Position numbers and translations under genes: made by a program
The notes under the pieces: model-generated
What the model was told of the DNA's origin: nothing
Seen by the model: only the letters and a program-made list of their open reading frames with translations
Databases searched by the model: none
Part shown: positions 3,364 to 55,783 of the stretch, one piece after another
Layout: the number at the start of each line of letters is the position of its first letter
Position numbering within the stretch: position 1 is the stretch's first letter
Source of the DNA: a virus
Lineage: Duplodnaviria > Heunggongvirae > Uroviricota > Caudoviricetes
Direction: 5' to 3' (one strand)
Virus record (IMG/VR): IMGVR_UViG_3300013285_000009
Location: 12,984 to 76,983 of that record
DNA: 64,000 bases

Positions 3364-4641
3364 ATGAAAACAATTGTAATAATGCCCGGTGGCTTTCACC
3401 CATTTCATGCAGGTCATGCTGCACTATATCAAAGTGCTGTAAAAGCATTTCCTGGTGCTGATGTATACGTGGCTGCAACTAACGATACGAAAACAAGACC
3501 CTTCCCCTTTGCTATTAAAGAAAAGTTAGCTAAGCTAGCAGGTGTGGCACCTGGTCACTTCATTCAAGTTAAGAGTCCCTTCAAGGCAGAAGAAATCACT
3601 AGTCATTACAATCCTGATGAAGATGTGTTGATCTTTGTTCGTAGTGAGAAAGATAGAACAGAACAGCCTAAACCAGGTGGAATAAAGAAAGACGGCACCC
3701 CGGCTTACTTTCAGCCATACACCGGTAAAGGTATGCAATCGTTTAATAAACATGCATACATGGCTTATCTACCTACTGTAGAGTTTGGTCCTGGCATTAA
3801 AAGCGCAACAGAGATTCGCAATGCTTGGCCCACACTAGATGAACGCCGCAAGACAGCATTAGTTATGAGTTTATATCCAGTAACACAGAAGAATCCTAAG
3901 CTAGCTGCTAACGTAGTTAAGATGTTAGACATGGGCATGGGCGACGGCGGCGATGTTGTGGCAGAAGGTGCAGAAGAAGCATTGCAGTATGCTACTCAAG
4001 CACATGCCGGACAAACTAGATCCGGTGGTGAACCATATATTACCCATCCAATGCGTGTTGCTGATTCTATTAAACAATATAAGCAGTCACATAACCTAGA
4101 TGCTATTATTAGTGCTGCATTATTGCACGATACAGTTGAAGACACTGATACCACACATGAAGCATTACATGATCTGTTTGGTGGATTAGTTGCGTCATTG
4201 GTACAAGAACTTACTAGCAATCCTGAAGAAATCAAACGAGTGGGCAAGGCGGCTTACCTAGCACACAAAATGGCTGCAATGAGTAGCTATGCACTTGTGA
4301 TTAAACTTGCTGATAGATTGGATAATGTACAAGATATTGCAACTGCTAAGACTCCGCAGTGGAGAGCTAAGTATGCAGCAGAAACTAATCAAATTTTAAA
4401 CTACATTGAAAAAACTCGCGCATTGACCGGAACACATAGCAAATTGATTAGTTTGATTCGCGCCAAGTTGGCAGAAATTGATCATCCGCAGCAGGATGTG
4501 GCCGAGAATCTTGGATTAAACTATCCGGGTACATATGAACAAGAGCATGGTTCTGCAAATAATAAATCTTCTCGACACATAGTAAATATGACTACCGAAA
4601 GCAATGTAACCGAAAGTACTGATTATCTGTCGGAAAAATAA
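3364..4641 (+). CDS. fusion protein: N-terminal NMNAT/cytidylyltransferase-like (HxGH) domain plus C-terminal RelA/SpoT-type HD (p)ppGpp-hydrolase domain
   Basis: N-terminus MPGGFHPFHAGH resembles the NadM/NatV motif FQPFHTAH at 53207-54226; C-terminus has HAGQTRSGGEPYITHP, AALLHDTVEDT and KLADRLDN, the SpoT/Mesh1 hydrolase signature. Confidence 0.7.
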   Translation: MKTIVIMPGGFHPFHAGHAALYQSAVKAFPGADVYVAATNDTKTRPFPFAIKEKLAKLAGVAPGHFIQVKSPFKAEEITSHYNPDEDVLIFVRSEKDRTEQPKPGGIKKDGTPAYFQPYTGKGMQSFNKHAYMAYLPTVEFGPGIKSATEIRNAWPTLDERRKTALVMSLYPVTQKNPKLAANVVKMLDMGMGDGGDVVAEGAEEALQYATQAHAGQTRSGGEPYITHPMRVADSIKQYKQSHNLDAIISAALLHDTVEDTDTTHEALHDLFGGLVASLVQELTSNPEEIKRVGKAAYLAHKMAAMSSYALVIKLADRLDNVQDIATAKTPQWRAKYAAETNQILNYIEKTRALTGTHSKLISLIRAKLAEIDHPQQDVAENLGLNYPGTYEQEHGSANNKSSRHIVNMTTESNVTESTDYLSEK

Positions 4642-8212: not shown

Positions 8213-8653
8213 ATGTTATCAGATAACTTAAAAATATTGCTTGCGACAACAAACGTATTGTCGATTAAAGCACAAAATTTTCACTGGAATGTTGAAGGAG
8301 ATAACTTTCCTCAGTACCACGCATTCTTTGATAGTTACTATACAGAAGTATATGCATCAGTTGACAGAGTTGCAGAGTATATACGCACTTTGGATTCCTA
8401 CGCACCAGGTAGCTTAACGCGATATGCAGAGTTAAGTGTGATTCAAGATCAAGTCAAGATACCTCGTGCTGAATTAATGTTTCAAGAATTATTTCAAGAC
8501 AATGCTACTATGATTGAATTACTAGATAGTGTATTTAAATCAGCAACTGAAGAAAACAAACAAGGTATTGCTAATTTCATTGCAGAGAGAATAGATGCTC
8601 ATAATAAGCACGCCTGGATGATAAGAAGTATACTTAAAAAAGAACGTGCATAG
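8213..8653 (+). CDS. dps: Dps-like ferritin (DNA protection during starvation family)
   Basis: KAQNFHWNVEGDNFPQYHAFFDSYY matches the Dps ferroxidase-site region (HWNV.G..F...H). Confidence 0.6.
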   Translation: MLSDNLKILLATTNVLSIKAQNFHWNVEGDNFPQYHAFFDSYYTEVYASVDRVAEYIRTLDSYAPGSLTRYAELSVIQDQVKIPRAELMFQELFQDNATMIELLDSVFKSATEENKQGIANFIAERIDAHNKHAWMIRSILKKERA

Positions 8654-14300: not shown

Positions 14301-16253
14301 ATGGCAATCATCCGCGATCCAATCGACCCGACTAATATTCTTAACGTCAACGCAGACGGCTCCGTCAACGTGGAGATTAGTAATTGGCCACCATCTGTAC
14401 CCGGTCCCCAGGGCTCTACCGGTGAGCAAGGTTTGACCGGTGAGCAAGGTTTGACCGGTCCCCGGGGTCTTACTGGCCCTATAGGTTTGCAAGGCGCGAC
14501 AGGCCAAACTGGCATTCAAGGTCTAGTGGGTCCGGCCGGCACAGGTGCTACTGGTCTAACAGGAGCTGCTTCTACTGTAGTTGGGCCCACTGGCCCAACT
14601 GGCCCCATCGGTTTAACGGGGGCGACTGGCCTAACTGGTGCTGCATCTACTATTGCTGGACCAACAGGTGCAACAGGTGCTGCAGGATCGTTCGGCGGCG
14701 CAGCATTTGACTATATGTATAGTAGTTCAGTTACCGGAATAGCTGACCCGGGCAGCTATAGCTTTAACAATATGAATTTAACGTTAGCGACTATGATGTA
14801 TATCAACAACATAGACGAGAACGGAGTGTTAACAACTAACTTCTTAGAGACAATTGATAGCTCAACTTCGGCGATTAAGGGCCACTTTAGTGTATCAGAT
14901 GAAGCCAACACAGTTGCATTTACGCTATTTGCCATCATCGGCTCACACACATTGAGTAACAATGTTTATGCAATCCCGATTGCATGGTTGGCGGGAGTAA
15001 CATCAATTCCTGATGCAAATCATAGTATTATAACCTTTGCTAGAACGGGAGATAAAGGAGATACCGGAGTCACTGGTGCTAAAGGGACAACCGGTAATAC
15101 AGGTGCGACTGGCGCACAAGGCAACACCGGATTAACCGGATTAACCGGTGCTGCATCTACTATCTCCGGGCCCCCGGGAGCAACGGGATCTATTGGCGCG
15201 GCCGGCCCGATCGGTAACATTGGGCCGGCCGGCCCAATGGGGCCTAGCAGCGGAGGTACTTCAGTTACCACCTTCTATGACAGCACACAGTCAAACAATA
15301 TTAAATATTCTCATAGCAGCAACAATCAACTGATCTCCGGGGCAGCTATCACTACTGACTTGGCCGGCACATACCGTACTGAATTCAATGCAGAATATTA
15401 TTGCACTCCTTCTATAGTATCTGCACAGTGTGCTACTGATTTGTCTTTGTTGGTTTCGACGCTCAACTCACTACCATCAACCGGTGTCCACGCAGCAGCA
15501 TTCGGCGCGGGCGAAACACTGGCTCCCGGTGTATACACGGTAGCAGGTGCAAGCACACAGGGCGGCAACTTAGCGTTTGACGGCCAAAACAATCCAAACT
15601 CAGTTTGGGTCATTCGAGTTAATGCAGCATTTGCTACGGCAGCAGGCGCAACGATGTCGTTGATTAACGGAGCACGAGCTGCAAACATCTTCTGGATAAT
15701 TAACGGCGCACCGACGTTCGGTGCTCAAGGTGTATTTAAAGGTACATTGATTGCCATTGCAGCAGCAATAACAACCGGTGACACTATTGACTTAGAAGGA
15801 AGATTTTTTAGCACAACTGGTGCAATTGCTACTACTAATGCTACATTAAATGTACCATTTGGTCCATCTGTAATTAATTTAGGTTCATTACAAAACTTTG
15901 TACTGTTTACTGCACTCGGTGCAGTGGGCAACACTGGTTCTATTGCTTGCCTAGGCGATATTAGTACAGGCGGTGGCGCAATTGCCGGCTACACCGGTTC
16001 TGTCGGAAGTATCTATGTACCAACTGATACCGGTACTCGTGCAACGTTTGGCATATATGTCAACGGAAGTCTAATTGCAAACTCAACACGCCTAGGACAG
16101 AGTATCCCTAACACACCGGGATTTGGCAAAGCAGCCGTACTATCCGGAATTGTACCGACTACTGCGGGACAGACAATTGAAGTTCGAATCAAGGTTGATG
16201 TTGGTGTATTTAACATCACGTCAATGAATCTTTACACCGTCAAGATTGCATAA
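14301..16253 (+). CDS. tail fibre or receptor-binding protein with collagen-like G-x-T triplet repeats
   Basis: [37 protein letters not shown].. and a second Gly-X-Y block [28 protein letters not shown]; Ala/Gly/Thr-rich C-terminal domain. Confidence 0.65.
14421..14456 (+). repeat. 18-bp perfect tandem duplication GGTGAGCAAGGTTTGACC x2 within the collagen-like region
   Basis: seen directly; encodes GEQGLT x2. Confidence 0.8.
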
Positions 16254-20803: not shown

Positions 20804-21153
20804 TGACCTTGGATACTTTGATTACTTGCCAAAGTAACAAGTGTCATTACTGCAATTGTGAAATGAATCGTGAGAAGAAGTCACTGCAATTGGCAACTGT
20901 TGAACATATTGTGGATAAGTGGTCGAGTCCAAAACACAGAAAAATAGAAGTTGCTTCCAATTTAGTTGCGGCTTGTTTTCAATGTAATAACACTCGCGGT
21001 GCAAAACGAAATCGTATTGCCCGAAGTTATTATAAAGCACAGTCAACCAAGCGCGGCATCAAACTTGCTGTTGCTTCAACGTCAAGTAAAGTTTTATATT
21101 CAATGTTTGGTTCAGTTCCACAACATCTCTTTAACGTAAAGGAAATTTTATGA
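20788..21153 (+). CDS. HNH endonuclease
   Basis: CHYCNCEM ... EHIVDKWSSPKH ... NLVAACFQCNNTRG (Cx2C ... H ... N ... Cx2C HNH core). Confidence 0.7.
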   Translation: MEHYMMTLDTLITCQSNKCHYCNCEMNREKKSLQLATVEHIVDKWSSPKHRKIEVASNLVAACFQCNNTRGAKRNRIARSYYKAQSTKRGIKLAVASTSSKVLYSMFGSVPQHLFNVKEIL

Positions 21154-21458
21154 CTCGTAAAATGGCAACGATTAGAAAAATTGATTCACTGCGTCCTATC
21201 CCGGGTGCTGATGCAATTGAATGCGCTATCGTAGGTGGATGGACCTGCGTGGTGAAGAAGGGTGAATACACAGCCGGAGACCTCGCGGTGTATTGTGAGA
21301 TTGATAGTTTTATCCCCACAGCCATCGCACCGTTCCTTACCAAGCCCGGGCACTATGCAAAGACTTTTGACGGCGTAGAAGGAGAAAGATTGAGAACTGT
21401 TTCTCTCAGAAAAACAGTCTCCCAGGGCCTGCTTCTACCACTTAAAAAGGTTGAATAA
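21150..21458 (+). CDS. hypothetical protein
   Basis: 102 aa. Confidence 0.4.
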   Translation: MTRKMATIRKIDSLRPIPGADAIECAIVGGWTCVVKKGEYTAGDLAVYCEIDSFIPTAIAPFLTKPGHYAKTFDGVEGERLRTVSLRKTVSQGLLLPLKKVE

Positions 21459-21515
21459 ACGAGTATTGGCATAAATAATAGTGACTACGCACAGTCAGAC
21501 TACGGAGACACTATT

Positions 21516-22409
21516 ATGCAAATATATCAGATACTAAACAAGATTACTGGAAAATCATATGTTGGTAAATCTAAGGATTACCAAAACAGATTTTTGAATC
21601 ACAAAAAGGCAGCACGAAATAAATGTAATCGCCGGCTATACGATTCTATGAATCATCACGGAATTGAAAATTTTGAACTAATTTTGTTAGAAGATTTGGG
21701 CAATGTAACCAGACAGGAAGCAAGTGATAAAGAAACATTTTGGGTAGCAAAGTTAAACACAATGATACCAAATGGATACAATATGACTCCTGGCGGCGAT
21801 GGTGGAAATACTATTGAATTTTGGAGCGATGCTGATAAGAAGAAGTTATGGGAACAACAAGCAAAAACTAGGACTGGAGGCAAAAGGACTGAATTGGCAA
21901 AAAAGAAAATGTCAATAGCCGCCGGTATCAGAGAAGCGAACAAGACTGTTGACGAAAAAAGAATCATAGCCGAGAAGATTAGCAATACCAACAAAGAAAA
22001 AGGTATTAGTCCGCCCGAGCATACTAAATGGAAAAAAGGTCAGGCTGGTACCAGAACTGGAATTCTGCATAACCAAGCCACTAAAGAAAAACTTAGTAAG
22101 TTTCGATCTGGTAAAACATATGAAGAAATACTCGGAGTTGAACAAGCACAACTAGAAAAGGCAAAACGAAGCGACAAATGGAAAGGTGATAAAAATCCTA
22201 GATATGTCGAATTCCCTAAAGAACAAAAACAGCAAGTAATTGGTATCTTACAAACTAAAAAAATGAAGATGTATGAAATTGTTGCTCTATTAAAGTTGAG
22301 AAAATTTAGAGAATGGTTACGAGAAATAAATGTAACCAACTATCAAGTAATGTATAATACACTAACTGATGAACAGTGGTGTTTGTTTTGGAAGAATATA
22401 AAATTATGA
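21516..22409 (+). CDS. GIY-YIG homing endonuclease (I-TevI/Seg-like)
   Basis: MQIYQILNKITGKSYVGKSKDYQNRFLNHKK.. canonical GIY-YIG; long Lys-rich C-terminal DNA-binding region. Confidence 0.8.
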   Translation: MQIYQILNKITGKSYVGKSKDYQNRFLNHKKAARNKCNRRLYDSMNHHGIENFELILLEDLGNVTRQEASDKETFWVAKLNTMIPNGYNMTPGGDGGNTIEFWSDADKKKLWEQQAKTRTGGKRTELAKKKMSIAAGIREANKTVDEKRIIAEKISNTNKEKGISPPEHTKWKKGQAGTRTGILHNQATKEKLSKFRSGKTYEEILGVEQAQLEKAKRSDKWKGDKNPRYVEFPKEQKQQVIGILQTKKMKMYEIVALLKLRKFREWLREINVTNYQVMYNTLTDEQWCLFWKNIKL

Positions 22410-22663
22410 ACGAAGATTATCCATTTGTAGTGAACATTCCCCGTCCATATCCAGGAACTGATGAGAACGAACGCATTATCAAATATATCGAACCATTGCG
22501 GGAATCAAAGTTGGTATTAGTATCAGGGGCATACGGTTTTAATCTTGGACAGTATGAAAAGGGTGAAGAATGTAGTCTGAGTCCGGGATTTAAGTATATG
22601 TTTTGGTTCAGGACAGAACAGGAACTTGACGGATTCGCCAAACATTTTGGAGTTGACAAATAA
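22406..22663 (+). CDS. hypothetical protein
   Basis: ATGA start/stop overlap with the endonuclease gene. Confidence 0.4.
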   Translation: MNEDYPFVVNIPRPYPGTDENERIIKYIEPLRESKLVLVSGAYGFNLGQYEKGEECSLSPGFKYMFWFRTEQELDGFAKHFGVDK

Positions 22664-22681
22664 TCAGTTTGGTGTTATAAT
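22653..22681 (+). promoter_or_regulatory. family promoter
   Basis: AGTTGACAAATAATCAGTTTGGTGTTATAAT. Confidence 0.55.
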
Positions 22682-22711
22682 ATACACTAGACAAACAAAC
22701 GAGAAGATACG

Positions 22712-23458
22712 ATGAAATATGTATTAGCACTAGCAGATGGCACCGAAGTTGAAGTTGTAGAAGGACAAGATGTTAGCGACCTTCTGAATATTAAACGCTG
22801 GGTTGCTGAAATCCCTGCATCGCTTGCCGGCGAAGTCAAGGGTATGTTCCCGTCAATTATCCCAAAGACTGATCAAGAGCGTATTCAAAACTTGTCAGTT
22901 GAATTAGAAGAATGGAAGTCGCAGGGACTGACTTGGGAAATTACTGAAAAGTTAGATGGCTCTTCAATGACTGTTTACGTGATGGGCGGTGAGGTCGGAG
23001 TTTGCTCACGTAATCTTGACCTCAAGCATAACGTTGATAACTCATTGTGGCGTGCCGCATACAAGTATGAACTGCCTACTAAGTTAGCTAACATTGGGCG
23101 CAACATTGCTATCCAAGGTGAACTGATTGGCAACGGCATTCAAGGTAACATGTACAAGATGCGTGACCAAGACTTTTACGTATACGACATTTACGACATT
23201 GATGCAGGACGTTACTTTACCCCTGCGGAACGTAAAGCGTTTGTAACAGAGTACAAGTTGAATCACTGCCCTGTATTTAAGTCTGATTTTATGCTTACTA
23301 ATGAGTCCGTTGCTGACTTGCTAAAACGGGCAGAAGCAAAGTCTGTAATGGGTGATATCAACGGCCCGGAGCAAGAAGGTCTTGTATATAAGTGTAACGA
23401 GCGTGAAGTGTCCTTCAAGGCAATTTCTAATAAGTTTTTGCTCAAGGTCGGCGAATAA
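22712..23458 (+). CDS. ATP-dependent RNA ligase-like nucleotidyltransferase (Rnl1-type KxDGS motif)
   Basis: EKLDGSSMTVYV motif I lysine; 248 aa. Confidence 0.5.
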   Translation: MKYVLALADGTEVEVVEGQDVSDLLNIKRWVAEIPASLAGEVKGMFPSIIPKTDQERIQNLSVELEEWKSQGLTWEITEKLDGSSMTVYVMGGEVGVCSRNLDLKHNVDNSLWRAAYKYELPTKLANIGRNIAIQGELIGNGIQGNMYKMRDQDFYVYDIYDIDAGRYFTPAERKAFVTEYKLNHCPVFKSDFMLTNESVADLLKRAEAKSVMGDINGPEQEGLVYKCNEREVSFKAISNKFLLKVGE

Positions 23459-24186: not shown

Positions 24187-24723
24187 ATGAGCAAAGTCCT
24201 ACTTGGCATAACCTGCACTGCATTGGTTGCGGTTCTAGGGGTTCAGCAATATCAACTAACTACTATCGCCGAAGATGTGGCGGAAATCAAGCAGGCGTTT
24301 GTCACACAAACTAATGAACAAATGTCGTATACTGTTACAGATGAAAAATGTTTAGCCAAAAATATCTATTACGAAGCGGGTATTGAAAGTGATAGGGGCA
24401 AGTATGCAGTCGCCCAAGTCACTATTAATCGATTGAAGTCTGGTAAGTGGGGCGATAGTATTTGCAGTGTAGTCCATGCTAAAAGTCAATTCTCTTGGAC
24501 TCTGAAAAAGAAACTAGAAACACCGAGTGGTAATGCATGGGCTGATAGTCAATGGATTGCCCATCGAGTGTTACAAGGTGATCGGGTCGCCCAACTTGAC
24601 AAAGCAATGTTCTACCATGCTGAATACGTCAGCCCAAAGTGGCGTGATCCTGTTGCAAAAATACAACAGATTGGTCAACATATTTTCTACACTAAAGCAA
24701 AGATGAAAGTAACTGACATTTGA
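24187..24723 (+). CDS. SleB/CwlJ-like cell-wall hydrolase (Hydrolase_2) with N-terminal membrane anchor
   Basis: NIYYEAGIESDRGKYAVAQVTINRLKSGKWGDSICSVVHAKSQFSW matches the SleB catalytic-domain pattern. Confidence 0.65.
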   Translation: MSKVLLGITCTALVAVLGVQQYQLTTIAEDVAEIKQAFVTQTNEQMSYTVTDEKCLAKNIYYEAGIESDRGKYAVAQVTINRLKSGKWGDSICSVVHAKSQFSWTLKKKLETPSGNAWADSQWIAHRVLQGDRVAQLDKAMFYHAEYVSPKWRDPVAKIQQIGQHIFYTKAKMKVTDI

Positions 24724-24748
24724 CATTAAATGGCTTTGGGTGTATAAT
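24720..24748 (+). promoter_or_regulatory. family promoter
   Basis: TTTGACATTAAATGGCTTTGGGTGTATAAT; -35 overlaps the stop of the wall hydrolase gene. Confidence 0.6.
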
Positions 24749-25618: not shown

Positions 25619-25856
25619 AGAAGTACCCGTCCATAAAGACATCCTGGATAGACCGGTCAACGTGGATGATGTGGTTGCCTTTTCGAATCATAACTCACTT
25701 GAGATTGGTAAGATTATTAAGATGACAAACAAACAAATTCGTGTTGTTCCTGTGCTAGGACGATATCGATCAGATACCGGTTACTTGAAATACAGTGCCC
25801 AGTGTGTGTTAGTGGGTGGCCCCGAGCTTACAATGTGGATGCTGAAAAAGACTTGA
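25611..25856 (+). CDS. hypothetical protein
   Basis: in-frame ATG (MTKEVPV..) with ATGACTAA overlap. Confidence 0.35.
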   Translation: MTKEVPVHKDILDRPVNVDDVVAFSNHNSLEIGKIIKMTNKQIRVVPVLGRYRSDTGYLKYSAQCVLVGGPELTMWMLKKT

Positions 25857-25881
25857 CATTAAATCGTTTTGGGTGTATAAT
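25853..25881 (+). promoter_or_regulatory. family promoter whose -10 abuts the next gene's start codons
   Basis: CTTGACATTAAATCGTTTTGGGTGTATAAT then ATGACTATGAAA; no conserved leader. Confidence 0.55.
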
Positions 25882-25887
25882 ATGACT

Positions 25888-26289
25888 ATGAAACAAACTA
25901 AGACCCAGAACATATTCTCTGCTGAGGCACCATACGCTAATTCGTTTCAGACAAGTGCAAAGCGTTTATTGTTTGTATGTTCAGTTGGTATGTTACGCAG
26001 TCCGACAGCCCAAATGGTTGCCTCACAAAATGGACACAATGCCCGCGCATGCGGATCTGATGTTGACATTGCATTGATTCCACTCAGTTGCAACCTAATC
26101 AATTGGGCCGACAAAATCGTCTTTATGAACCCGGACAATTTTGATCAGGCGAAGCAAGTATTTGACCCGGTAGGGTACAAAGAGGATATCGAAGCCAAAG
26201 CGATTGTATGGAACATCATTGATGATTACTCTTGGGGTGACAACGTCCTGTGGAACATCCTATACACTAAAATGAAGATGTTTGACTGA
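25888..26289 (+). CDS. low-molecular-weight protein-tyrosine-phosphatase/ArsC-like protein (CX5R-S P-loop)
   Basis: LLFVCSVGMLRSPTAQ resembles the LMW-PTP motif V-C-x-G-N-x-C-R-S; start uncertain (25882 or 25888; 25873 GTG lies inside the -10). Confidence 0.4.
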   Translation: MKQTKTQNIFSAEAPYANSFQTSAKRLLFVCSVGMLRSPTAQMVASQNGHNARACGSDVDIALIPLSCNLINWADKIVFMNPDNFDQAKQVFDPVGYKEDIEAKAIVWNIIDDYSWGDNVLWNILYTKMKMFD

Positions 26290-26527: not shown

Positions 26528-26728
26528 ATGATGGTTGTAGTAGCAAAAATGACAGACGGTAGAGTGGTTGAAGTCGTCCGTGTCGCTGAAACAGTTGGCT
26601 TCTCCACTGACAAAGATTGGGTGATGATCTGTTTTGACTTTGAAAAGATCAACCGCAAGCGTGAGCAATTTAAGTGGGTTCCCGCAACGACCCGGTTCGA
26701 CTGGGTCCGAGAATTCTCTTTCGGTTGA
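26528..26728 (+). CDS. hypothetical protein
   Basis: 66 aa. Confidence 0.35.
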   Translation: MMVVVAKMTDGRVVEVVRVAETVGFSTDKDWVMICFDFEKINRKREQFKWVPATTRFDWVREFSFG

Positions 26729-26753
26729 CATTAAATGGATGGTGTGTTATACT
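26725..26753 (+). promoter_or_regulatory. family promoter (TTGACA-N17-TATACT)
   Basis: GGTTGACATTAAATGGATGGTGTGTTATACT. Confidence 0.5.
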
Positions 26754-26783
26754 GTAAGTACAGTAAAAGAAAGAGCACAGATT

Positions 26784-27227
26784 ATGAAAAAAGGTCACAT
26801 GTTAGCTACGATGTTAGTCATTGCTACTAACGCCCATGATGGTCAATACGACAAAGGTGGCGCACCTTATATTCTGCATCCCTTGAAAGTCATGCACTAT
26901 CTAAAGTCCGATGATGAGGAACTACTGTGCATGGCTCTTGGTCATGATGTTATTGAAGACACCTCAGTTACTTACAAGGATCTGCGTGATGCAGGTATCT
27001 CTGAAAGAGTTATCAACGGTATCTGGAGACTTACAAAACAACCCGGTCAAACACTTGACGAATACAAAGCAGGTGTCTTTGAAAATGTTGATGCAATGAA
27101 AGTCAAAATGGCTGATTTGCGACACAACACCGATATTCGCCGGCTGAAAGGTGTGACTGAAAAAGACATTGCTAGGATGGCCAAATATCATCTTTTTTAC
27201 ATGGAAATCAAAGCAAGATTAGGTTGA
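26784..27227 (+). CDS. small alarmone hydrolase (SAH; stand-alone RelA/SpoT HD domain)
   Basis: NAHDGQYDKGGAPYILHP..ALGHDVIEDT..MADLRHN HD-hydrolase signature; 147 aa; RBS AAAGAAAGAG. Confidence 0.7.
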   Translation: MKKGHMLATMLVIATNAHDGQYDKGGAPYILHPLKVMHYLKSDDEELLCMALGHDVIEDTSVTYKDLRDAGISERVINGIWRLTKQPGQTLDEYKAGVFENVDAMKVKMADLRHNTDIRRLKGVTEKDIARMAKYHLFYMEIKARLG

Positions 27228-27252
27228 CATTAAATGCTTTTGGTGATATAAT
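27224..27252 (+). promoter_or_regulatory. family promoter
   Basis: GGTTGACATTAAATGCTTTTGGTGATATAAT. Confidence 0.6.
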
Positions 27253-27281: not shown

Positions 27282-29426
27282 ATGATTCTGAATTCTGCTC
27301 CCCAAGATCAAGCTGTTCTGTCTAATGTAGGACAGATCGGTGAGTTCCGCATTCGTAATAGTGCGAAGGCATTCTCTATTCTTTCTTCGGGTCTTTACGC
27401 AAATAAAGTTCGTGCTATCATTCGTGAACTTTCGTGCAATGCGATTGACTCGCATACCGCAGCCGGTAAAAGTTCTACCCCGTTCGATGTTCACCTGCCA
27501 AATTCACTTGAAGCATGGTTCTCTATTCGTGACTATGGTACTGGACTATCGCACGATCAGGTTACTAGCATCTACACCACGTACTTTGAAAGTACCAAAA
27601 CTAATTCGAACGAATTCATCGGTGCACTGGGTCTAGGTAGCAAGTCTCCCTTCTCTTACACTGACAACTTCACGGTTACTGCTATTCAAAATGGCCGTAA
27701 GGGTGTGTACACTGCATTCATTAATGAACACGGTGTACCCTCTATCGCCCAAATGATGGAAGAAGAAACCACTGACCCAAGCGGTGTTGAAGTTAAGTTC
27801 TCGGTTAACGACCGTTACGACTTTGATAAGTTTCGGCAAGAGGCTCGGCAAGTTTACACACACTTCAAACAGCGCCCTGTAGTGTCCGGGGCACATGATT
27901 TCAAATTCATTGATACTGATTACCTTGAAAGAGATATCATCCCCGGTGTCCATACTGTCAGTGATTCGCGTAGCAGCTATGCGGTCATGGGTAATATTGC
28001 ATATCCAATTGATGTGCCTAGGGCAGACTCCACGATCAACGAAGCAATGAAGGCAATGCTGCAATGCGGCCTGGTGATTGAATTCAGTATCGGTGATCTT
28101 GACTTTCAAGCATCACGTGAAGGTCTGTCTTATGTACCGATGACTATCGCAAGCATCAAACGCAAGTTGGAAGAACTAACTGCTCAATTGTCAATTCACA
28201 TTGCGGTTGAAGCTGACAAAATTGATAACTTGTGGGAACGTGCTGTTTATCTGGCAAAGCGTAAGGGTGAAGCATTGTGGTCACAGGCTGTCGTTAAGTA
28301 CGTAACCGACACTAAGTTTCCTTTGCTGGACGCGGTAAGTCCACGCTATCGTTATGATCAACTGAAAAAGTTCAAACTGACTGTCGCGGATCTAGCATCC
28401 AAGTATAACATTGTGTTGAAGGGCTTTAGTCGTAGTCGCGGTGTGCAAGTTGCTTACAACTTGAAAAGTAATAGTGAGTATGATCAGGCTACCAACAAGC
28501 ATGTTGCGTACTGGGGTATCACTGTTAGCACGGATGCATTCTTTGTGTTCAACGATACAAAGACCGGAGCACTGGAGCGTAGTAAGTTTCACTGGAAGAA
28601 TGCTACTATGAATAGTCACAGTGAAGTGATCTATGTCATTGAAGCAGCCGATAAGAGTAAGCCGGTGCAGAAGGATTTGTTCTTGAAGGACATCATGAAT
28701 CCTCCTGAAAGTAAGATTCTGAAGGCAAGTGATTTGCGGATGCGCGAACGTGCAGCTAACATGGGCAAGAATGTAACTATTCTGCAACTTACCTCACGCT
28801 CACGTGGATACAACTCTACAATGGTTTGGGCAGACGCGGGTAAAGCTGATACGTTTGACAAGTCTACAACTTTTTACTATCTTCCTCTGAGCGGCTTCTC
28901 TTCATTGGGTAAGGTCAATGACGTAAAAGTATTGCATGAAAATCTGAATAACAGCAACCTGTTCACCGGTACTATATACGGTGTTCGTAAGGCTGATATG
29001 GATTTTATTCTGACTCAAAAGAATTGGGTCAACATTGATACAATGATTACAGGGAAATTGACTAAGTTGGGTCAGGCCGATGTGATGGGAATGGTCAAAC
29101 AGGCTATTGACTTTAAAGAGTTTTTTCAGTATAATGTGTGTAAGCTGATCAAGAAAGATAGTCCATACAAGGTGTTGCATGAGACTTTCAAGGACGTGAA
29201 AGTTACAGATCCAAAGCAGCGACACAGTTTGGAATTTTTGTGCAATGCATACAACGTAACTACTCAGGCAAATATTGACCCAAGTAAGTTGATTGCTAAG
29301 TATAAAGATGACATTAATGCACTTAAAAAACGTTACCCGTTAATTAAGGTAGTGAGTAAGTACAGCGTAGAAGATGCCGATTTGGCCGAATATATTAATT
29401 TGATTGACAACAGTAAAGGTATTTAA
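27282..29426 (+). CDS. Hsp90/HtpG-like GHKL ATPase
   Basis: N-box IRELSCNAIDS (compare HtpG LRELISNASDA), G1 IRDYGTGLS, G2 IGALGLGSKSPF; 714 aa. Confidence 0.5.
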   Translation: MILNSAPQDQAVLSNVGQIGEFRIRNSAKAFSILSSGLYANKVRAIIRELSCNAIDSHTAAGKSSTPFDVHLPNSLEAWFSIRDYGTGLSHDQVTSIYTTYFESTKTNSNEFIGALGLGSKSPFSYTDNFTVTAIQNGRKGVYTAFINEHGVPSIAQMMEEETTDPSGVEVKFSVNDRYDFDKFRQEARQVYTHFKQRPVVSGAHDFKFIDTDYLERDIIPGVHTVSDSRSSYAVMGNIAYPIDVPRADSTINEAMKAMLQCGLVIEFSIGDLDFQASREGLSYVPMTIASIKRKLEELTAQLSIHIAVEADKIDNLWERAVYLAKRKGEALWSQAVVKYVTDTKFPLLDAVSPRYRYDQLKKFKLTVADLASKYNIVLKGFSRSRGVQVAYNLKSNSEYDQATNKHVAYWGITVSTDAFFVFNDTKTGALERSKFHWKNATMNSHSEVIYVIEAADKSKPVQKDLFLKDIMNPPESKILKASDLRMRERAANMGKNVTILQLTSRSRGYNSTMVWADAGKADTFDKSTTFYYLPLSGFSSLGKVNDVKVLHENLNNSNLFTGTIYGVRKADMDFILTQKNWVNIDTMITGKLTKLGQADVMGMVKQAIDFKEFFQYNVCKLIKKDSPYKVLHETFKDVKVTDPKQRHSLEFLCNAYNVTTQANIDPSKLIAKYKDDINALKKRYPLIKVVSKYSVEDADLAEYINLIDNSKGI

Positions 29427-29427
29427 A

Positions 29428-30438
29428 ATGAGCTATCCATATTTGATTCAAGGTGCTAACATCACCGTTGTGATTGGTAACGTCCCTCACACAATCAGCA
29501 AAACCCATCTGACCTACGAACAGGTTAAAGATGCTATTAAAGCCGGCGACTGGGAAACAGTCAAAGACATTATCGAACCTAAGAAAGTTATTCTGAATTA
29601 TGGTCGTGGTAATGTAAGTGTCCAAGGCGATCAATTGTTCTGGAAGGGCAAGGAATTTCACAGTGCATTGGCAAGTCGTATGATTGCAATGTTGCAAGAA
29701 GGCTTCACTATTGAGCCCATGGTTGAATTCATGGAAAACTTGATGACTAACCCTTCGCGTCAAGCTGTCAATGAACTGTACGGCTTCTTGGAAAAGAACA
29801 ACTTGCCCATCACCCCCGATGGTTGCTTCTTGGCTTACAAGAAAGTGCGTGACAACTATTTCGACGTGCATTCTGGCACGATGGATAATAGTCTCGGCAA
29901 TGTGGTTTCTATGGAACGTAACGAAGTTGATGACAATCGCAACAACACTTGTTCGGCTGGCCTGCACTTTTGCGCACAAAACTATTTGAAGTCATTCGGT
30001 GGTGAACGTGTCGTGATTGTTAAAATCAATCCTCGCGATGTAGTCTCTATTCCAACTGACTACAATGAAGCTAAGGGTCGTGCTTGTCAGTATGAAGTGA
30101 TCGGTGAAGTTGGTTCTTCGGAAGATGACACCAATGCTGCATTCAGCAAGCCTGTTCAATCGAATGCTAGCAACAATACTTTCGTTCGTGCAAATACTGA
30201 ACCAAAGTTGGGTTCATCTGACTTCTATCGTGGTTACTCTGATGGATTCTGTGGTAGTTCGTACAATCTTCAAGTAGCCAATGCACTGCATTATCGTGAA
30301 GGTTACGAAAAGGGTGAAGATGCTTCTCGGAATGATTCGGTCGAAGTGTATCGTTTTGTTGCATCCGTGACTAAAACAGCAGGTAATGCCCCGTCTTACT
30401 GGGACGGTGGTTCTTGGCCTCTTTCAGGTAAGTTCTAA
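29428..30438 (+). CDS. hypothetical protein
   Basis: in-frame ATG 1 nt after upstream stop; ORF-track start 29404 is TTG. Confidence 0.4.
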   Translation: MSYPYLIQGANITVVIGNVPHTISKTHLTYEQVKDAIKAGDWETVKDIIEPKKVILNYGRGNVSVQGDQLFWKGKEFHSALASRMIAMLQEGFTIEPMVEFMENLMTNPSRQAVNELYGFLEKNNLPITPDGCFLAYKKVRDNYFDVHSGTMDNSLGNVVSMERNEVDDNRNNTCSAGLHFCAQNYLKSFGGERVVIVKINPRDVVSIPTDYNEAKGRACQYEVIGEVGSSEDDTNAAFSKPVQSNASNNTFVRANTEPKLGSSDFYRGYSDGFCGSSYNLQVANALHYREGYEKGEDASRNDSVEVYRFVASVTKTAGNAPSYWDGGSWPLSGKF

Positions 30439-30445
30439 ATAGTGC

Positions 30446-30474
30446 TTGACTTTAATCTTGAATGGTGATATAAT
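30446..30474 (+). promoter_or_regulatory. family promoter, divergent variant
   Basis: GCTTGACTTTAATCTTGAATGGTGATATAAT. Confidence 0.5.
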
Positions 30475-30506: not shown

Positions 30507-30986
30507 ATGGCATTTATTCAAAATTGCGCAGCAAGCGACATTCAATCGGGGCTTTTCTATAAAGATCCGGGTACTAACAGTATGCTGATTAGTATCACTG
30601 ATCCTGCAGGATGGTCTCCCGAGGCAATGCCCAACTTCAGTGAACGTCATAACTTTGAGTTCCTTGACATTGAAAAAGATGATATCGTATTCGATGAAGA
30701 ATGCCGAGTAAGTGATGCACAGGCTGCTGAACTTGTTCGATTGCTTCAATACGCCATGTCTAATGACATGAACGTTATCGTGCATTGCACTGCCGGAATC
30801 TGTCGCAGTGGTGCAGTGACTGAGATTGGTGTTCAGTTGGGCTTTGCTGATACTAAAAGATATCGTCAACCCAATTTGCTTGTCAAACATAAGATGTCGA
30901 AGTGTCTGGGTTGGACCTACGACGAAGACGAAGTGTCCGCGCCAATTAATATGAGCGCACAATTTGATTGGGAAGGTGATATCTAA
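30507..30986 (+). CDS. dual-specificity/cysteine phosphatase (HCX5R-S)
   Basis: VIVHCTAGICRSGAVT P-loop; 159 aa. Confidence 0.65.
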   Translation: MAFIQNCAASDIQSGLFYKDPGTNSMLISITDPAGWSPEAMPNFSERHNFEFLDIEKDDIVFDEECRVSDAQAAELVRLLQYAMSNDMNVIVHCTAGICRSGAVTEIGVQLGFADTKRYRQPNLLVKHKMSKCLGWTYDEDEVSAPINMSAQFDWEGDI

Positions 30987-31447
30987 TGTCTAAGTGTTAT
31001 CAATTGGTTGGAGTACCTGCTGCAGGTAAGTCTACTTGGGTTAAGGACCAATCTTGGGCCAAAGATTATGTTCATGTATCAACCGACATGTGGGTTGACA
31101 TGGAAGCCGAACGTCAGGGTAAGACCTACAACGAAGTGTTCAAAGACTATATGCCTCATGCTGTAAAGCTAATGGCTATCCAAGTTGAAAATTCCCGTGA
31201 ATTAGGATTGGACATTATCTGGGACCAAACATCTACAACGGTGAACAGTCGTAAAAAGAAGTTCCTGATGTTACCTGACTATGAGCATATTGCGGTTGTG
31301 TTTGCAACCCCTGAACTTAAAGAATTGAATCGTCGGTTGAAGTCTCGTCCTGGAAAGGACATCCCTTCATACGTGATGGTTCAAATGATCAAGGGATTTC
31401 AAATGCCTACCCTTGACGAAGGCTTTTCTACAGTGATGAAAGTATAA
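30986..31447 (+). CDS. polynucleotide 5'-kinase (T4 Pnk kinase-domain-like P-loop kinase)
   Basis: LVGVPAAGKSTW (compare T4 Pnk IGCPGSGKSTW) and ELNRRLKSRPGKDIPSYVMVQMIKGF (compare T4 [25 protein letters not shown]). Confidence 0.7.
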   Translation: MSKCYQLVGVPAAGKSTWVKDQSWAKDYVHVSTDMWVDMEAERQGKTYNEVFKDYMPHAVKLMAIQVENSRELGLDIIWDQTSTTVNSRKKKFLMLPDYEHIAVVFATPELKELNRRLKSRPGKDIPSYVMVQMIKGFQMPTLDEGFSTVMKV

Positions 31448-38214: not shown

Positions 38215-38544
38215 TCAAAATGGATTAAATGAACTCCCGCATCCGCAAGTAGTTTGGGCCTGTGGATTGCTAATCTTAAAGCTTGCACCCATCAAGTTTT
38301 CTACGTAATCTACACTCGCATTCAGTAAGTATTGAGCACTCAGACTATCAACTAGTATGACGGTATCACCTGAGGACACTTCAAAATCATCTTCATTTTT
38401 CTCATCATCCATAGCAAAGCCGTAGCTCATTCCACTACAGCCCCCACCTTGCACATACATACGCAAACGTACTGCGGGATTATTTTCTTCTAATAAAAGT
38501 TCTGCTATTTTATCGGTAGCGTTTTGTGTAATAGTAATGTTCAT
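38215..38544 (-). CDS. erpA: A-type iron-sulfur cluster carrier ErpA/IscA (HesB family)
   Basis: near-collinear with E. coli ErpA: RLRMYVQGGGCSGMSYGF ... VDYVENLMGASFKISNPQAQTTCGCGSSF (three conserved Cys). Confidence 0.9.
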   Translation of the reverse strand: MNITITQNATDKIAELLLEENNPAVRLRMYVQGGGCSGMSYGFAMDDEKNEDDFEVSSGDTVILVDSLSAQYLLNASVDYVENLMGASFKISNPQAQTTCGCGSSFNPF

Positions 38545-39318: not shown

Positions 39319-39826
39319 TTAATACTCCGGTAATATTATCAGTGACGTAATGCACGGGACAGTCACACACGCTTGCTATTAATTTCTTAGCAAGTAATTC
39401 TCGGCATTCAAAGTACTGGGTAATTTCGCCGGCAGTGATAACATCACTAATTACGGAATCTCTCTTATCCACTGGACCGAATGATACTATATCACATTTT
39501 TCTTTAATCTTGGCCCGCTTGGTATCAGTTGATGCAAAGATATTGGGATTGGGTAACCGAATTATTAATGCTTTGGGAGGTCGAGTAACAGTATAGAACC
39601 ATGCAATTACGTTGTGTAGTACAATATCAACACCCGATCCATCAACTGATAAGTTATAGTGCGGGGTCTCACTGAGTGCATCTGAAAACTCTCTTGAGTC
39701 GCCACCTACATATAAAATGTAGTCAGACTGTACAACAGTTTCAATTTCTTCACATAAGTGACCATTGGAGTTGAATCCACGTAGATTGCTTTCGTTGCTA
39801 CCTATAAAATTATTGTAGAACTTCAT
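39305..39826 (-). CDS. hypothetical protein, tandem paralog 2
   Basis: MKFYNNFIG..; VGGDSREF (GDS-like); NLSVDGSGVDIVLHNVIAWF. Confidence 0.4.
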   Translation of the reverse strand: MKFYNNFIGSNESNLRGFNSNGHLCEEIETVVQSDYILYVGGDSREFSDALSETPHYNLSVDGSGVDIVLHNVIAWFYTVTRPPKALIIRLPNPNIFASTDTKRAKIKEKCDIVSFGPVDKRDSVISDVITAGEITQYFECRELLAKKLIASVCDCPVHYVTDNITGVLNEFL

Positions 39827-40041
39827 TATCGTCTCCTCGTGATCCGGCCTTTAGTAAGATCATACGGTGAGAATTCTACTTCTACCGTATCACCTAGTAA
39901 TATTTTAATTGCATGTTGTCGCATCTTACCGGAGATGTGACCTACTATTTTTGCCCCGGATTCTAATGTAATACGGAATGTGGCATTCGATAACACATCA
40001 GTTACCTTGCCGTCCATTTTAATGCCTTCTTCTTTTGCCAT
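39826..40041 (-). CDS. infA: translation initiation factor IF-1
   Basis: [71 protein letters not shown], about 60% identical to E. coli IF1 along the full length. Confidence 0.9.
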
Positions 40042-45238: not shown

Positions 45239-45441
45239 TTTTTACCCCAGGTGATGCTATTCCAAATTCTTTCATGAAGAAAATATAATATAGTATTCGC
45301 AGTTAATTGGATCGTTGCTATTGTGCCGGACACAAGTAAATTTCCTAATATAAAATATGATATGGCGAATGTGGACGCTGTGCCTATTATTCGCCAACTA
45401 ATAGTTTTTACTAAAGAACGATAACTCGAATCACGTGTCAT
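45235..45441 (-). CDS. small membrane protein
   Basis: 68 aa; two hydrophobic helices. Confidence 0.4.
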
Positions 45442-45761
45442 TCTTCTAACAAGTCAATCTTGTTGGGTTTGTTGTTCCACTCTTCGGCATCAGGCAGGGC
45501 AGCTTTCTGTTTAGTAATCAGCGGCCACTTATTAGACAGGCGCGTATTAAGATCAAACCAGAATGCTATATCGACTCCGGCTTCTTTATCTGACACAATT
45601 GCATTCACCGGACACTCGGGCACACATACGCCGCAATCGATACATTCATCAGGGTCGATAGATAAGAAGTTGGGTCCTTCGTGAAAGCAATCCACAGGAC
45701 AGACTGTAACGCAGTCAGTATGCTTACATTTAATACAGTTCTCGGTAACTAAAAATGTCAT
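45438..45761 (-). CDS. fdxA: 7Fe ferredoxin (FdxA type; 3Fe-4S plus 4Fe-4S)
   Basis: [43 protein letters not shown], near-identical spacing to Azotobacter FdI. Confidence 0.9.
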
Positions 45762-46006: not shown

Positions 46007-46345
46007 TTATTTATTGATTGTAATACCGGACCATCGTTTAAGTTTGTCAAACTTATTTTGCTTGGCTTGTTCGATACCTTCTACTGTCGCACCGATATTC
46101 AAATCAGTAAGTAGTTCAACCATGGCAAAGAGATCGCCGATCTCTTCTTCCAACATATTCATATTAGTACAGGCCTTGCCCGGCTTGATCTGGTCTGGCC
46201 CAAAGCGCATACACTTACTAACTGCTTGGACAACCTCTGCACATTCTTCTTGCAGGATCAGTAAAATTTCTCTGGTTTCGTCGTTCATTGTAGTTGTTAT
46301 ATGTTTCAAAACATGCCGGGCTTTATTGTTCGGGTGCCCGGCCAA
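46007..46345 (-). CDS. MazG-like nucleoside-triphosphate pyrophosphohydrolase
   Basis: EECAEVVQAV and EEEIGDLFAMV (ExxE...ExxD metal-binding helices). Confidence 0.6.
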   Translation of the reverse strand: MAGHPNNKARHVLKHITTTMNDETREILLILQEECAEVVQAVSKCMRFGPDQIKPGKACTNMNMLEEEIGDLFAMVELLTDLNIGATVEGIEQAKQNKFDKLKRWSGITINK

Positions 46346-49802: not shown

Positions 49803-49831
49803 ATTATACACCCAAAACCATTTAATGTCAA
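49803..49831 (-). promoter_or_regulatory. family promoter, minus orientation
   Basis: reverse complement GCTTGACATTAAATGGTTTTGGGTGTATAAT plus leader AGAATCTTAAACAGCAACAAGTAGGG. Confidence 0.65.
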
Positions 49832-52523: not shown

Positions 52524-53210
52524 ATGAACTACCCTATTACTCAACTTCACCGGGATAACTTTAAGCCCACTTATCTGTATATCAAGCAGCATACAGAAAC
52601 GGGCAAACTCTATTTTGGAAAAACTACCAAAAAGAATGTTGAGAGGTATACTGGTTCTGGAATACATTGGGGCCGTCATATCAGTGCTCACGGGAAAGAC
52701 AAAGTAGTTACACTTTGGTATTGTTTATACACAGAGATCGAAATTTTAGTTGAAACTGCTTTGGCAATGTCGGCAATAATGGATATAACTGAATCAACTG
52801 ATTGGTTAAACTTTAAGCCAGAATCTGGATTAGATGGCGGCTCGTTTGTTGGGTTCAATGGATGGGCTGGTAAGAAACATTCTCCAGAGCACATCGAAAA
52901 ATTAAGAAAACTCGGAAGAGAACGCCCTGTTACTGAAAATATGCGGAATAGTTTTTTAAAGCGTGATTTTAATGGCGCTAAAAATGGCATGGCATTACAC
53001 ATAGATATTTTCGATGACACTGGATTGCTAAGATTTAAATGCCATGGAAATTTCGAGAAATTATGCATTGAAAATAATCTACCTATGGGACCGCTTAAGA
53101 TTTCGTATGCCAGAGGAGGAAAACCAATTTTTACATCAAAATCCACAGGTAGATTGAAAGATTTATCCATGTTAAAATATAAAAATTGGTTTGCTAAAAT
53201 AGCAGTTTAA
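52524..53210 (+). CDS. GIY-YIG-type homing endonuclease (Seg-like), plus-strand insertion
   Basis: YLYIKQHTETGKLYFGKTTKKNVERYTGSG variant GIY-YIG core; only plus-strand gene in this part of the minus block. Confidence 0.55.
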   Translation: MNYPITQLHRDNFKPTYLYIKQHTETGKLYFGKTTKKNVERYTGSGIHWGRHISAHGKDKVVTLWYCLYTEIEILVETALAMSAIMDITESTDWLNFKPESGLDGGSFVGFNGWAGKKHSPEHIEKLRKLGRERPVTENMRNSFLKRDFNGAKNGMALHIDIFDDTGLLRFKCHGNFEKLCIENNLPMGPLKISYARGGKPIFTSKSTGRLKDLSMLKYKNWFAKIAV

Positions 53211-54226: not shown

Positions 54227-54227
54227 A

Positions 54228-54554
54228 TTAATAACCTCGAATCAATTTGAATGCAGTGAGAGTAGAAGCAATGTCCAATCCATGTTCGTCACAATGGCAG
54301 ATCATTTTCTGTGCTTTTTTCAAATACTCACTGTGGGCGTGACTTGTCCAGTCGTCTTTTTTGTTTTTGACTTCATAATGCCAACCGCAACCATCTGTGT
54401 GGTTGTGAGTGCAGAGCATACCGTGCAACTCTTTGGCAAGTTGATGATCTGGTGATTCGAGTTTAGCCGCAATCAGTTGGGCTTGCAAGTCTTTGAGACC
54501 TTGCTCATGTTGTTTGATTTGTTCTTCGATAGCGAAGAGAGTTAATTTTGACAT
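54228..54554 (-). CDS. small Cys/His-rich protein
   Basis: 108 aa; CTHNHTDGCGWH..HAHSE..CHCDEHG. Confidence 0.4.
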   Translation of the reverse strand: MSKLTLFAIEEQIKQHEQGLKDLQAQLIAAKLESPDHQLAKELHGMLCTHNHTDGCGWHYEVKNKKDDWTSHAHSEYLKKAQKMICHCDEHGLDIASTLTAFKLIRGY

Positions 54555-54613
54555 TGAAAAATCCTTTCAATTAATGTCAGTAGAAAGTCTATCTCTCTAC
54601 AGTTTATAATTAC

Positions 54614-54642
54614 ATTATAGCATGACCTGTATTAAAAGTCAA
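54614..54642 (-). promoter_or_regulatory. family promoter, minus orientation, divergent
   Basis: reverse complement GCTTGACTTTTAATACAGGTCATGCTATAAT. Confidence 0.5.
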
Positions 54643-54657
54643 GCTATAATTTTTGCA

Positions 54658-55710: not shown

Positions 55711-55783
55711 ATTTTATCGCGTTGTTTTAATGTATGATTATTATATCAGGGATGCGACCCAATGTCAACATCCCTGATACTTT

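Follow-up and report, generated by a model that had tools for sequence, protein, structure and literature searches.

What does a small, stand-alone alarmone hydrolase encoded by a phage degrade, and whose nucleotides would it be directed at? The question is raised by an open reading frame (ORF) at 26784..27227 (+) in a stretch of 64,000 nucleotides from a Caudoviricetes virus (IMG/VR record IMGVR_UViG_3300013285_000009), which is referred to below as the window. The ORF runs from ATG to TGA and encodes an HD-domain protein of 147 aa, exactly where a first-pass annotation, made from the letters alone, had placed it. The three motifs quoted in that annotation are all found in the translation: HDGQYDKGGAPYILHP at aa 18-33, ALGHDVIEDT at aa 51-60 and MADLRHN at aa 109-115. 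The predicted specificity of the protein is for adenosine, not guanosine, 3'-pyrophosphates; in other respects it appears to be an ordinary member of the widespread phage small alarmone hydrolases (SAHs) of the Aph1/PbcSpo type.

The Hydrolase Gene and Its Conservation

The ORF is a real, well-conserved phage gene and no chance frame. Its product is matched by the profile phrog_990 ('metal-dependent phosphohydrolase') with an E-value of 8.7e-57 and by TIGR00691 (RelA/SpoT, N-terminal part) with an E-value of 3.7e-15. The Pfam profile HD_4 gives 23.1 bits, which is under its gathering score of 27.2, and covers aa 12-70 only. A large protein collection contains 4157 homologues at E ≤ 1e-5, and the identity to the hydrolase is 83-99% among the 120 matches listed. 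When the gene was compared with its homologue on a 358-kb metagenomic contig (L001), the ratio of nonsynonymous to synonymous substitution rates (dN/dS) was 0.06, with dS saturated; the gene is under strong purifying selection. An AlphaFold2 model of the protein has eight helices and a mean predicted local distance difference test score (pLDDT) of 93.7. A longer frame that starts at a TTG codon (26634..27227, 197 aa) does not qualify as the gene, because the promoter described below sits within it and because nearly all of the listed homologues are 143-151 aa long.

Signature Residues and Fold

The best solved relative by sequence is 7SMG, the structure of Aph1 (BACCAC_01146) from a prophage of Bacteroides caccae, with an E-value of 7.7e-24; Rel and SpoT structures follow at about 1e-11 or weaker. 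Aph1 is the founder of a family of monofunctional (p)ppApp hydrolases and has no detectable ppGpp activity (PMC10083569, Ahmad et al. 2023). All 12 of the 12 purified Aph1 homologues cleaved ppApp, and only two of them showed a modest ppGpp activity (PMC10083569). The family was gathered with the C-terminal ~53 residues, which do not include the HD motif, as a probe. Its signature comprises D24, R96, D116, R119, K133 and Y134, and a D24R/R119A double mutant of Aph1 gains ppGpp hydrolysis (PMC10083569). The enzyme is a tetramer, and its subunit has eight helices, with helices 0 and 9 missing (PMC10083569).

Like Aph1, the window hydrolase is a single HD domain of ~145 aa with eight helices, and neither has the helices 0 and 9 that are present in Rel and PaSAH. 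The two are 36-37% identical in structural alignments, with the HD and ED motifs in common and a C-terminal half that is Aph-specific. The catalytic His-Asp pair, the loss of which the first-pass annotation had named as evidence against its reading, is retained in the alignment (H54-D55). The whole catalytic set (H32, H54-D55, E58-D59, D111 and N115) is in fact intact, and it is invariant in the alignment with Aph1, Rel and phage SAHs; H54, D55, E58 and D59 were found in 150 of 150 representatives, taken from the best 150 clusters at 50% identity. Five of the six signature residues are kept as well, with D23, D117, R120, K134 and Y135 in the places of Aph1 D24, D116, R119, K133 and Y134; D23 and R120 are thus the counterparts of the two residues that decide the specificity of Aph1. 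Among the same representatives, these five positions carry D in 140, D in 119, R in 142, K in 97 (and R in another 26) and Y in 137.

The C-terminal part of the protein points in the same direction. When the last 57 aa alone were compared with all chains of the PDB, the only match was 7SMG (E = 1.6e-4), and no structure of Rel, SpoT, MESH1 or PaSAH was matched. This result mirrors the probe by which the authors of the Aph1 study defined their family. The predicted model superimposes on 7SMG with a template modelling (TM) score of 0.86-0.90 and a root-mean-square deviation of 1.6-1.9 Å over 138-143 columns, which is essentially the full length of both proteins. MESH1 and PaSAH come next, with target-normalised TM scores of 0.64-0.69; they and Rel fit the model less well and carry extra helices. 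The SpoT/Rel domains and the SAHs of the MESH1/PaSAH type belong to the same HD superfamily and use the same metal-binding residues as the hydrolase, but they differ in an Arg at the position of D23, in having neither the D-x-R-R-L insertion nor the KY pair, and in one or two additional helices.

Judged by these features, the hydrolase is assigned to the Aph1/PbcSpo clade of SAHs as an ordinary member. The label 'SpoT-type', which the first-pass annotation had attached to it, is wrong, as the (p)ppApp signature and the fold are those of Aph1; the SpoT-type domain of the window is that of another gene, 3364..4641.

Relatives in Phages and Toxin Neutralisation

Members of the hydrolase family are present in no fewer than 331 deposited phage records and number thousands among metagenomic proteins. 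One of its members, gp220 of Salmonella phage PVP-SE1 (YP_004894027.1), is 56% identical to the window hydrolase over 136 aa (E = 2e-54) and has the same residue as the latter at each of the six signature positions (D, G, D, R, K, Y). It was found that gp220 neutralises all five tested toxic small alarmone synthetases (toxSAS), namely CapRel, PhRel, PhRel2, FaRel2 and FaRel (PMC7229694, Table 1). Jimmy et al. class gp220 as PbcSpo, and they proposed that incoming phages bypass alarmone-mediated defence by means of such hydrolases (PMC7229694). Because of the 56% identity, it is very likely that the window hydrolase, too, belongs to the PbcSpo subfamily (Atkinson 2011; Jimmy 2020). A role against alarmone-based toxins, which the first-pass annotation had put forward, agrees with the experiments on gp220 (PMC7229694).

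The settings of the two genes can be compared. In the lytic myovirus PVP-SE1, gp220 is a stand-alone enzyme, like the window hydrolase, and has no toxin as a neighbour. The gp220 gene overlaps a gene annotated as thymidylate kinase, whereas the gene in the window has a private promoter and lies upstream of rIIA, and gp220 is annotated as a longer protein at the N-terminus (169 aa). The lineage of PVP-SE1 is unrelated to that of the window phage, the rIIA protein of which is only ~30% identical to its best match in deposited phages, which comes from PA5oct-type jumbo phages.

A mechanistic precedent is provided by ATfaRel of C. marina, which according to Jimmy et al. is of the same SAH subfamily as gp220 and which hydrolyses ppApp. 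This protein counteracts FaRel as a type IV antitoxin, and its gene belongs to a toxin-antitoxin operon of three genes. ATfaRel, as a PbcSpo SAH, also restores aminoacylation of tRNA that has been pyrophosphorylated by FaRel2 (preprint 10.1101/2021.04.30.441581).

The surroundings of the SAH gene were noted in two cultured phages. The jumbo Vibrio phage 2.275.O (L006) has a gene for a CCA-adding enzyme three genes upstream of the SAH gene NVP2275O_351 and a Nudix gene two genes downstream, and in Ralstonia phage RSP15 (L007) the SAH gene adjoins a cluster of four tRNA genes, an ATPase gene and two phosphoesterase genes. With two genomes, this proximity to tRNA-related genes is anecdotal; it fits a role at the tRNA 3'-end.

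An Autonomous Promoter-Gene Cassette

The hydrolase gene is preceded by a sigma70-type promoter at 26725..26753 (+), which consists of TTGACA, a spacer of 17 nt and TATACT, with the TG of an extended -10 element at 26745-26746. It agrees with the consensus at 11 of the 12 hexamer positions and lies ~30 nt upstream of the ATG; its -35 hexamer overlaps the stop codon of an upstream 66-aa ORF. Between promoter and start codon there is a purine-rich, Shine-Dalgarno-like stretch (AAAAGAAAGAG, 26765..26775, +), which ends 8 nt before the ATG. As read from the sequence it is weak, with the GGAG, GAGG and AGGA cores all missing. Weak Shine-Dalgarno sequences are common in the window, where only 33 of 107 ORFs have such a core upstream. 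Of the promoter and the ribosome-binding site that the first-pass annotation had ascribed to the gene, the promoter is clearly there; the binding site comes down to the coreless purine-rich stretch.

A further promoter, a perfect TTGACA-17-TATAAT with TG, lies at 27224..27252 (+). It overlaps the stop codon of the hydrolase gene, forms the 3' boundary of the hydrolase cassette and precedes rIIA (27282..29426, +), which is followed by rIIB (29404..30438, +). Both promoters are members of a stereotyped family, TTGACATTAAATnnTTTTGGGTGTATAAT, for which 36 matches were found in the window and 0.99 would be expected by chance; 35 of the 36 share the strand of the surrounding genes. This promoter type, which can also be written as TTGACATTAAAT...TATAAT, conserves the spacer besides both hexamers, as is seen at 24720..24748, 25853..25881, 27224..27252 and 49803..49831. 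On the related contig L001, a stretch of 12.4 kb contains 11 occurrences of its variants.

The homologue on L001 has a promoter and leader nearly identical to those in the window, and different flanking genes. In the other related contexts, L011, L013 and L014 among them, each copy of the gene likewise has a promoter-like element immediately before it. Thirteen genes of L001 have a match in the window; among them the hydrolase gene is conserved best, with 86%, and the others reach 34-73%. No neighbour is conserved in the related contexts (L001-L004, L011, L013/L014), in each of which different small ORFs lie around the gene. Because the promoter is kept with the gene while the flanks differ, and because the hydrolase shows the best conservation among the genes matched on L001, it appears to behave as an autonomous early cassette of promoter plus gene under strong purifying selection. 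A functional link between the hydrolase and rIIA/rIIB was considered and dropped, since their adjacency is missing in the three other related contexts (L001-L004, L011 and L013/L014).

Genomic Setting and the Search for a Partner Toxin

For each half of the window, the translations of those ORFs on the prevailing coding strand that reach 65 aa or more were concatenated, and a partner toxin was sought among them with Pfam. Within this scope, no RelA_SpoT synthetase (PF04607) and no MuF domain was found. Likewise, none of the genes called in the ~6.6 kb upstream and 9.5 kb downstream of the window on the source contig encodes a RelA/SpoT homologue (RSH) synthetase or a MuF protein. Window and flanks together cover ~80 kb of this contig, a metagenome sequence of 131,875 bp at ENA (ERZ27247438, k141_226922). 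Because no such toxin is seen in the window or in its ~16 kb of flanks, the hydrolase appears to be a stand-alone enzyme rather than an immunity gene. It sits among small early-type genes beside rIIA and rIIB, outside any head-morphogenesis module. In this it differs from Aph1: no toxin partner is seen in these ~80 kb, it has its own early-type promoter, and it belongs to a large, apparently lytic phage that bears rIIA and rIIB.

Nucleotide searches among deposited phages revealed no relative of the window; the sole matches, of 49-58 bp, lie inside the SAH gene and come from Aeromonas phages. Since related contigs reach 160-360 kb, the window is taken to derive from a large uncultured phage.

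The Second HD Protein and the MazG-Like Protein

The first-pass annotation had counted three alarmone-degrading enzymes in this phage, the other two being an HD domain encoded at 3364..4641 (+) and a MazG-like protein encoded at 46007..46345 (-). Both of these genes are real, but the count is overstated. The gene at 3364..4641 is a separate one outside the hydrolase cassette, and its product of 425 aa is a fusion of a nucleotidyltransferase (NTase)-like domain with an HD domain. The latter is confirmed by HD_4 (E = 2.8e-18) and is of the SpoT/Rel/Mesh1 type: it contains GQTRSGGEPYITHP, HDTVEDT and ADRLDN, has an Arg at the guanine-stacking position, where Aph enzymes have an Asp, and is without the Aph-specific insertion. 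Its best PDB matches are Rel of M. tuberculosis (5XNX, 3.7e-17) and MESH1 (3NQW/3NR1), with Aph1 reaching only 2.9e-8. It thus has the features expected of a SpoT/Rel-type enzyme and is predicted to be of the (p)ppGpp hydrolase type.

The N-terminal domain of the fusion is HxGH nucleotidyltransferase-like (PGGFHPFHAGHAAL), with only distant similarity to phosphopantetheine adenylyltransferase (PPAT) or cytidylyltransferases. In deposited phages only the HD part of the protein is matched, in 69 records that are mostly from jumbo phages, none of them covering at least 80% of the query. Among metagenomic relatives the fusion is common, and the N-terminal module (85-91% identical) recurs with different C-terminal partners, the proteins being 320-719 aa long. 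For the fusion, the AlphaFold2 model is poor, with a mean pLDDT of 58.7 and values below 50 in the region 194-276.

The treatment of the two HD domains as equivalent alarmone hydrolases does not hold, as they are of different types and BLASTP aligns only their N-terminal halves (41% identity over 64 aa). Because the domain of 3364..4641 is SpoT/Rel-type while the protein of 26784..27227 is Aph1-type, the two enzymes are probably complementary, acting on guanosine-type and adenosine-type substrates respectively, and not redundant copies.

The MazG-like protein is encoded by the minus strand; at this position the plus frame is interrupted by stop codons. The protein of 112 aa, an all-alpha NTP pyrophosphohydrolase with EExxE and EExxD motifs, is matched by Pfam MazG with 26.9 bits (cut-off 22) and by phrog_4856 (7.5e-22), and the acidic metal-binding motifs appear in its translation as QEECAEV and EEEIGD. 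Its resemblance to house-cleaning enzymes is only weak (YpjD 2GTA, E = 0.14; 5IE9, E up to 0.3). Nothing ties this protein to alarmones. For a cyanophage MazG, magic-spot nucleotides have been shown not to be substrates (PMC6850273). The occurrence of SAH, MazG-like and NAD-salvage genes in one genome has already been described for the lytic phage Pakpunavirus Adele (PMC12846349).

Proposed Function

With family membership, catalytic residues, adenosine-type signature, fold, purifying selection and private promoter established here, we infer a function for the hydrolase. It is reasonably probable, in our estimate, that it is an early hydrolase of adenosine 3'-pyrophosphates of the Aph1/PbcSpo type which cancels the toxSAS of the host and has little or no (p)ppGpp activity. 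The gene would be transcribed by the host RNA polymerase early in infection. Its product, a compact metal-dependent HD hydrolase, would remove the 3'-pyrophosphate from (p)ppApp to give ATP, ADP or AMP and pyrophosphate (PPi), and would probably also act on tRNA with a pyrophosphorylated 3'-terminal A76. In this way it might cancel the action of both the (p)ppApp makers (FaRel- or Tas1/Apk-type) and the tRNA modifiers (CapRel/PhRel/FaRel2-type) of the host, all of them toxSAS by which the infection would be aborted if they were left unopposed. A predicted specificity for adenosine 3'-pyrophosphates fits both products of toxSAS, (p)ppApp and tRNA A76-3'-PP. The hydrolase itself would have little or no activity on (p)ppGpp, which is more plausibly a substrate of the separate SpoT-type HD domain of 3364..4641.

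Several points weigh against this proposal. The sixth signature residue is lost, Aph1 R96 being replaced by G97 in the hydrolase; this position varies across the clade (R in 54, G in 23 and K in 22 of the 150 representatives), and in Aph1 R96 sits away from the active site (PMC10083569). The specificity is read from the sequence and a predicted structure. The closely related gp220 is known by toxin neutralisation rather than by its substrates in vitro. ATfaRel, a PbcSpo enzyme, reportedly breaks down both (p)ppGpp and ppApp, and strict adenosine specificity is therefore not guaranteed by the clade. The words 'tRNA' and 'NADPH' occur nowhere in the Aph1 paper (PMC10083569), so neither substrate is reported there. 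Moreover, toxSAS in the host of this phage are hypothetical, and no case of counter-defence by a phage SAH in a real infection was found in the literature searched.

Alternative Explanations

The first-pass annotation had thought of a control of host alarmones, by which the enzyme would hydrolyse (p)ppGpp and suppress the stringent response of the host, keeping transcription and translation high. The membership of the hydrolase in the RelA/SpoT hydrolase superfamily, as indicated by TIGR00691, is in line with this, as are the (p)ppGpp activity of ATfaRel and the modest ppGpp activity of two of the 12 tested Aph1 homologues. Databases also name close homologues 'guanosine-3',5'-bis(diphosphate) 3'-pyrophosphohydrolase', but these names are automatic annotations without tests behind them. 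The sequence tells a different story: D23 stands where the guanine-binding enzymes (Rel and the other HD domain of the window) have an Arg, the Aph-specific D-x-R-R-L insertion is present, and Aph1 itself cleaves ppGpp only once D24 and R119 have been mutated. The phage, furthermore, already has a SpoT-type HD domain at 3364..4641. We consider a (p)ppGpp hydrolase improbable. A still smaller chance is given to an immunity protein, akin to a type IV antitoxin, that would protect against a (p)ppApp synthetase toxin of the phage itself. The founders of the clade do act in this manner, Aph1 against the MuF-fused toxin Apk2 and ATfaRel against FaRel, and the gene order of Streptococcus phage K13 (portal, minor head protein, small ORF, SAH) resembles the Aph1 arrangement, the more so if the K13 minor head protein is of the MuF type. 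In the window and its ~16 kb of flanks, by contrast, the search described above returned neither a RelA_SpoT synthetase nor a MuF protein. The gene is served by a promoter of its own, none of its neighbours is conserved in four related contigs, and it lies among early-type genes beside rIIA/rIIB and not in a head-morphogenesis module. Even among the analysed Aph homologues in general, proximity to a MuF or a portal gene amounts to only 0.4% and 1.5%, respectively (PMC10083569).

Equally slim, in our view, is the prospect that the substrate is another phosphorylated adenosine compound: NADP(H), the hydrolysis of which would feed an NAD pool alongside the nicotinamide phosphoribosyltransferase (NAMPT) and NMN adenylyltransferase (NMNAT)-Nudix enzymes of the phage, or adenosine 3',5'-bisphosphate (pAp) or 3'-phosphoadenosine 5'-phosphosulfate (PAPS). 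MESH1 and XccSAH are NADPH phosphatases (PMC9765508), a MESH1-PAPS complex has been solved (9CHY), and the window does encode NAMPT (55784..57220) and NadM-Nudix (53207..54226). However, these two genes lie at a distance of 26-30 kb and are read from the other strand, and structures of the MESH1 type fit the predicted model clearly worse than Aph1 does. On NADPH, moreover, the efficiency of XccSAH is already ~40-fold below that of Mesh1; the authors of that study explain this by the absence of an optimised motif for the nicotinamide riboside (PMC9765508). A more specialised reading, which we hold only tentatively though with more sympathy than the three above, makes the hydrolase a healing enzyme of tRNA 3'-ends that removes the A76 pyrophosphate added by toxins of the CapRel/PhRel/FaRel2 type. 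Its cassette would be kept by large uncultured phages in otherwise hypervariable early regions. It would act together with the products of other genes that are candidates for RNA repair, namely the RNA ligase of 21150..23458 and the Cys-phosphatase and P-loop kinase of 30507..31447. Guanosine alarmones would be left to the SpoT-type NTase-HD fusion, so that the two enzymes might form a base-specific counter-defence.

Other Features of the Window

The RNA ligase just mentioned is apparently split (21150..23458, +), with an OB-fold ORF (PHA02142 domain) at 21150..21458 and an RNA_ligase nucleotidyltransferase ORF at 22712..23458. An ORF for a GIY-YIG endonuclease (21516..22409) and a 95-aa ORF lie between the two parts, and no Rfam intron model was matched. 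At 30507..31447 (+), directly after rIIB and behind a promoter of its own (30446..30474), a Cys-phosphatase of 159 aa is encoded (VHCTAGICRSG; DSPc-like, E = 1.1e-5). The next ORF begins in overlap with the phosphatase stop codon and encodes an AAA_33 P-loop kinase of 153 aa with a weak match to a polynucleotide kinase PHROG. Phosphatase and kinase could be an end-healing pair. A homologue of the phosphatase on L001 is 65% identical. A second ORF with a CX5R-like motif (25873..26289; LFVCSVGMLRS) has no profile match.

The NAD salvage pair occupies 53207..57220 (-), with nicotinamide phosphoribosyltransferase at 55784..57220 and a bifunctional NMN adenylyltransferase-Nudix protein at 53207..54226; an AAA+ ATPase (54658..55710) and a 108-aa ORF (54228..54554) are placed between them. 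The proteostasis set is unusually full for a phage. A ClpB-like AAA+ protein is encoded at 67..2073 (+), which has 756 aa in the contig and is truncated at the start of the window, and just outside the window (L015, L016) there are a weak GroES-like match (Cpn10), DnaJ, PhoH, HSP20, ClpS and ClpP. Host-like auxiliary genes on the minus strand encode a homologue of IF-1 (39826..40041), an IscA-type Fe-S assembly protein (38215..38544) and a ferredoxin (45438..45761), and a ferritin/Dps-like protein is encoded at 8213..8653 (+). In the 650-aa protein of 14301..16253 (+), collagen-like Gly-X-Y repeats occur together with an ice-binding-like domain (PF11999, E = 2.2e-25); this protein is taken to be a putative tail fibre or another virion fibre.

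Rfam at gathering thresholds gave no match over the whole window, and thus no riboswitch and no intron, and ARAGORN found no tRNA genes in it. Neither the SAH nor the NTase-HD fusion was matched by a PADLOC model, and the same is true of the MazG-like protein, the phosphatases and the kinase; for other proteins, the matches were generic AAA+ ones only.

Implications

Phage SAHs were proposed in 2020 as a means to bypass toxSAS immunity, and two of them neutralised toxins on co-expression (PMC7229694). The present analysis refines this picture, in that a common clade of phage SAHs, including the tested PVP-SE1 enzyme, has the adenosine-specific signature of Aph1. Because the clade carries this signature, the common annotation 'ppGpp pyrophosphohydrolase' is probably wrong for these phage proteins. 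The presence of an adenosine-type and a guanosine-type HD hydrolase, as predicted here, in one and the same phage would provide a clean test case for a division of labour between such enzymes.

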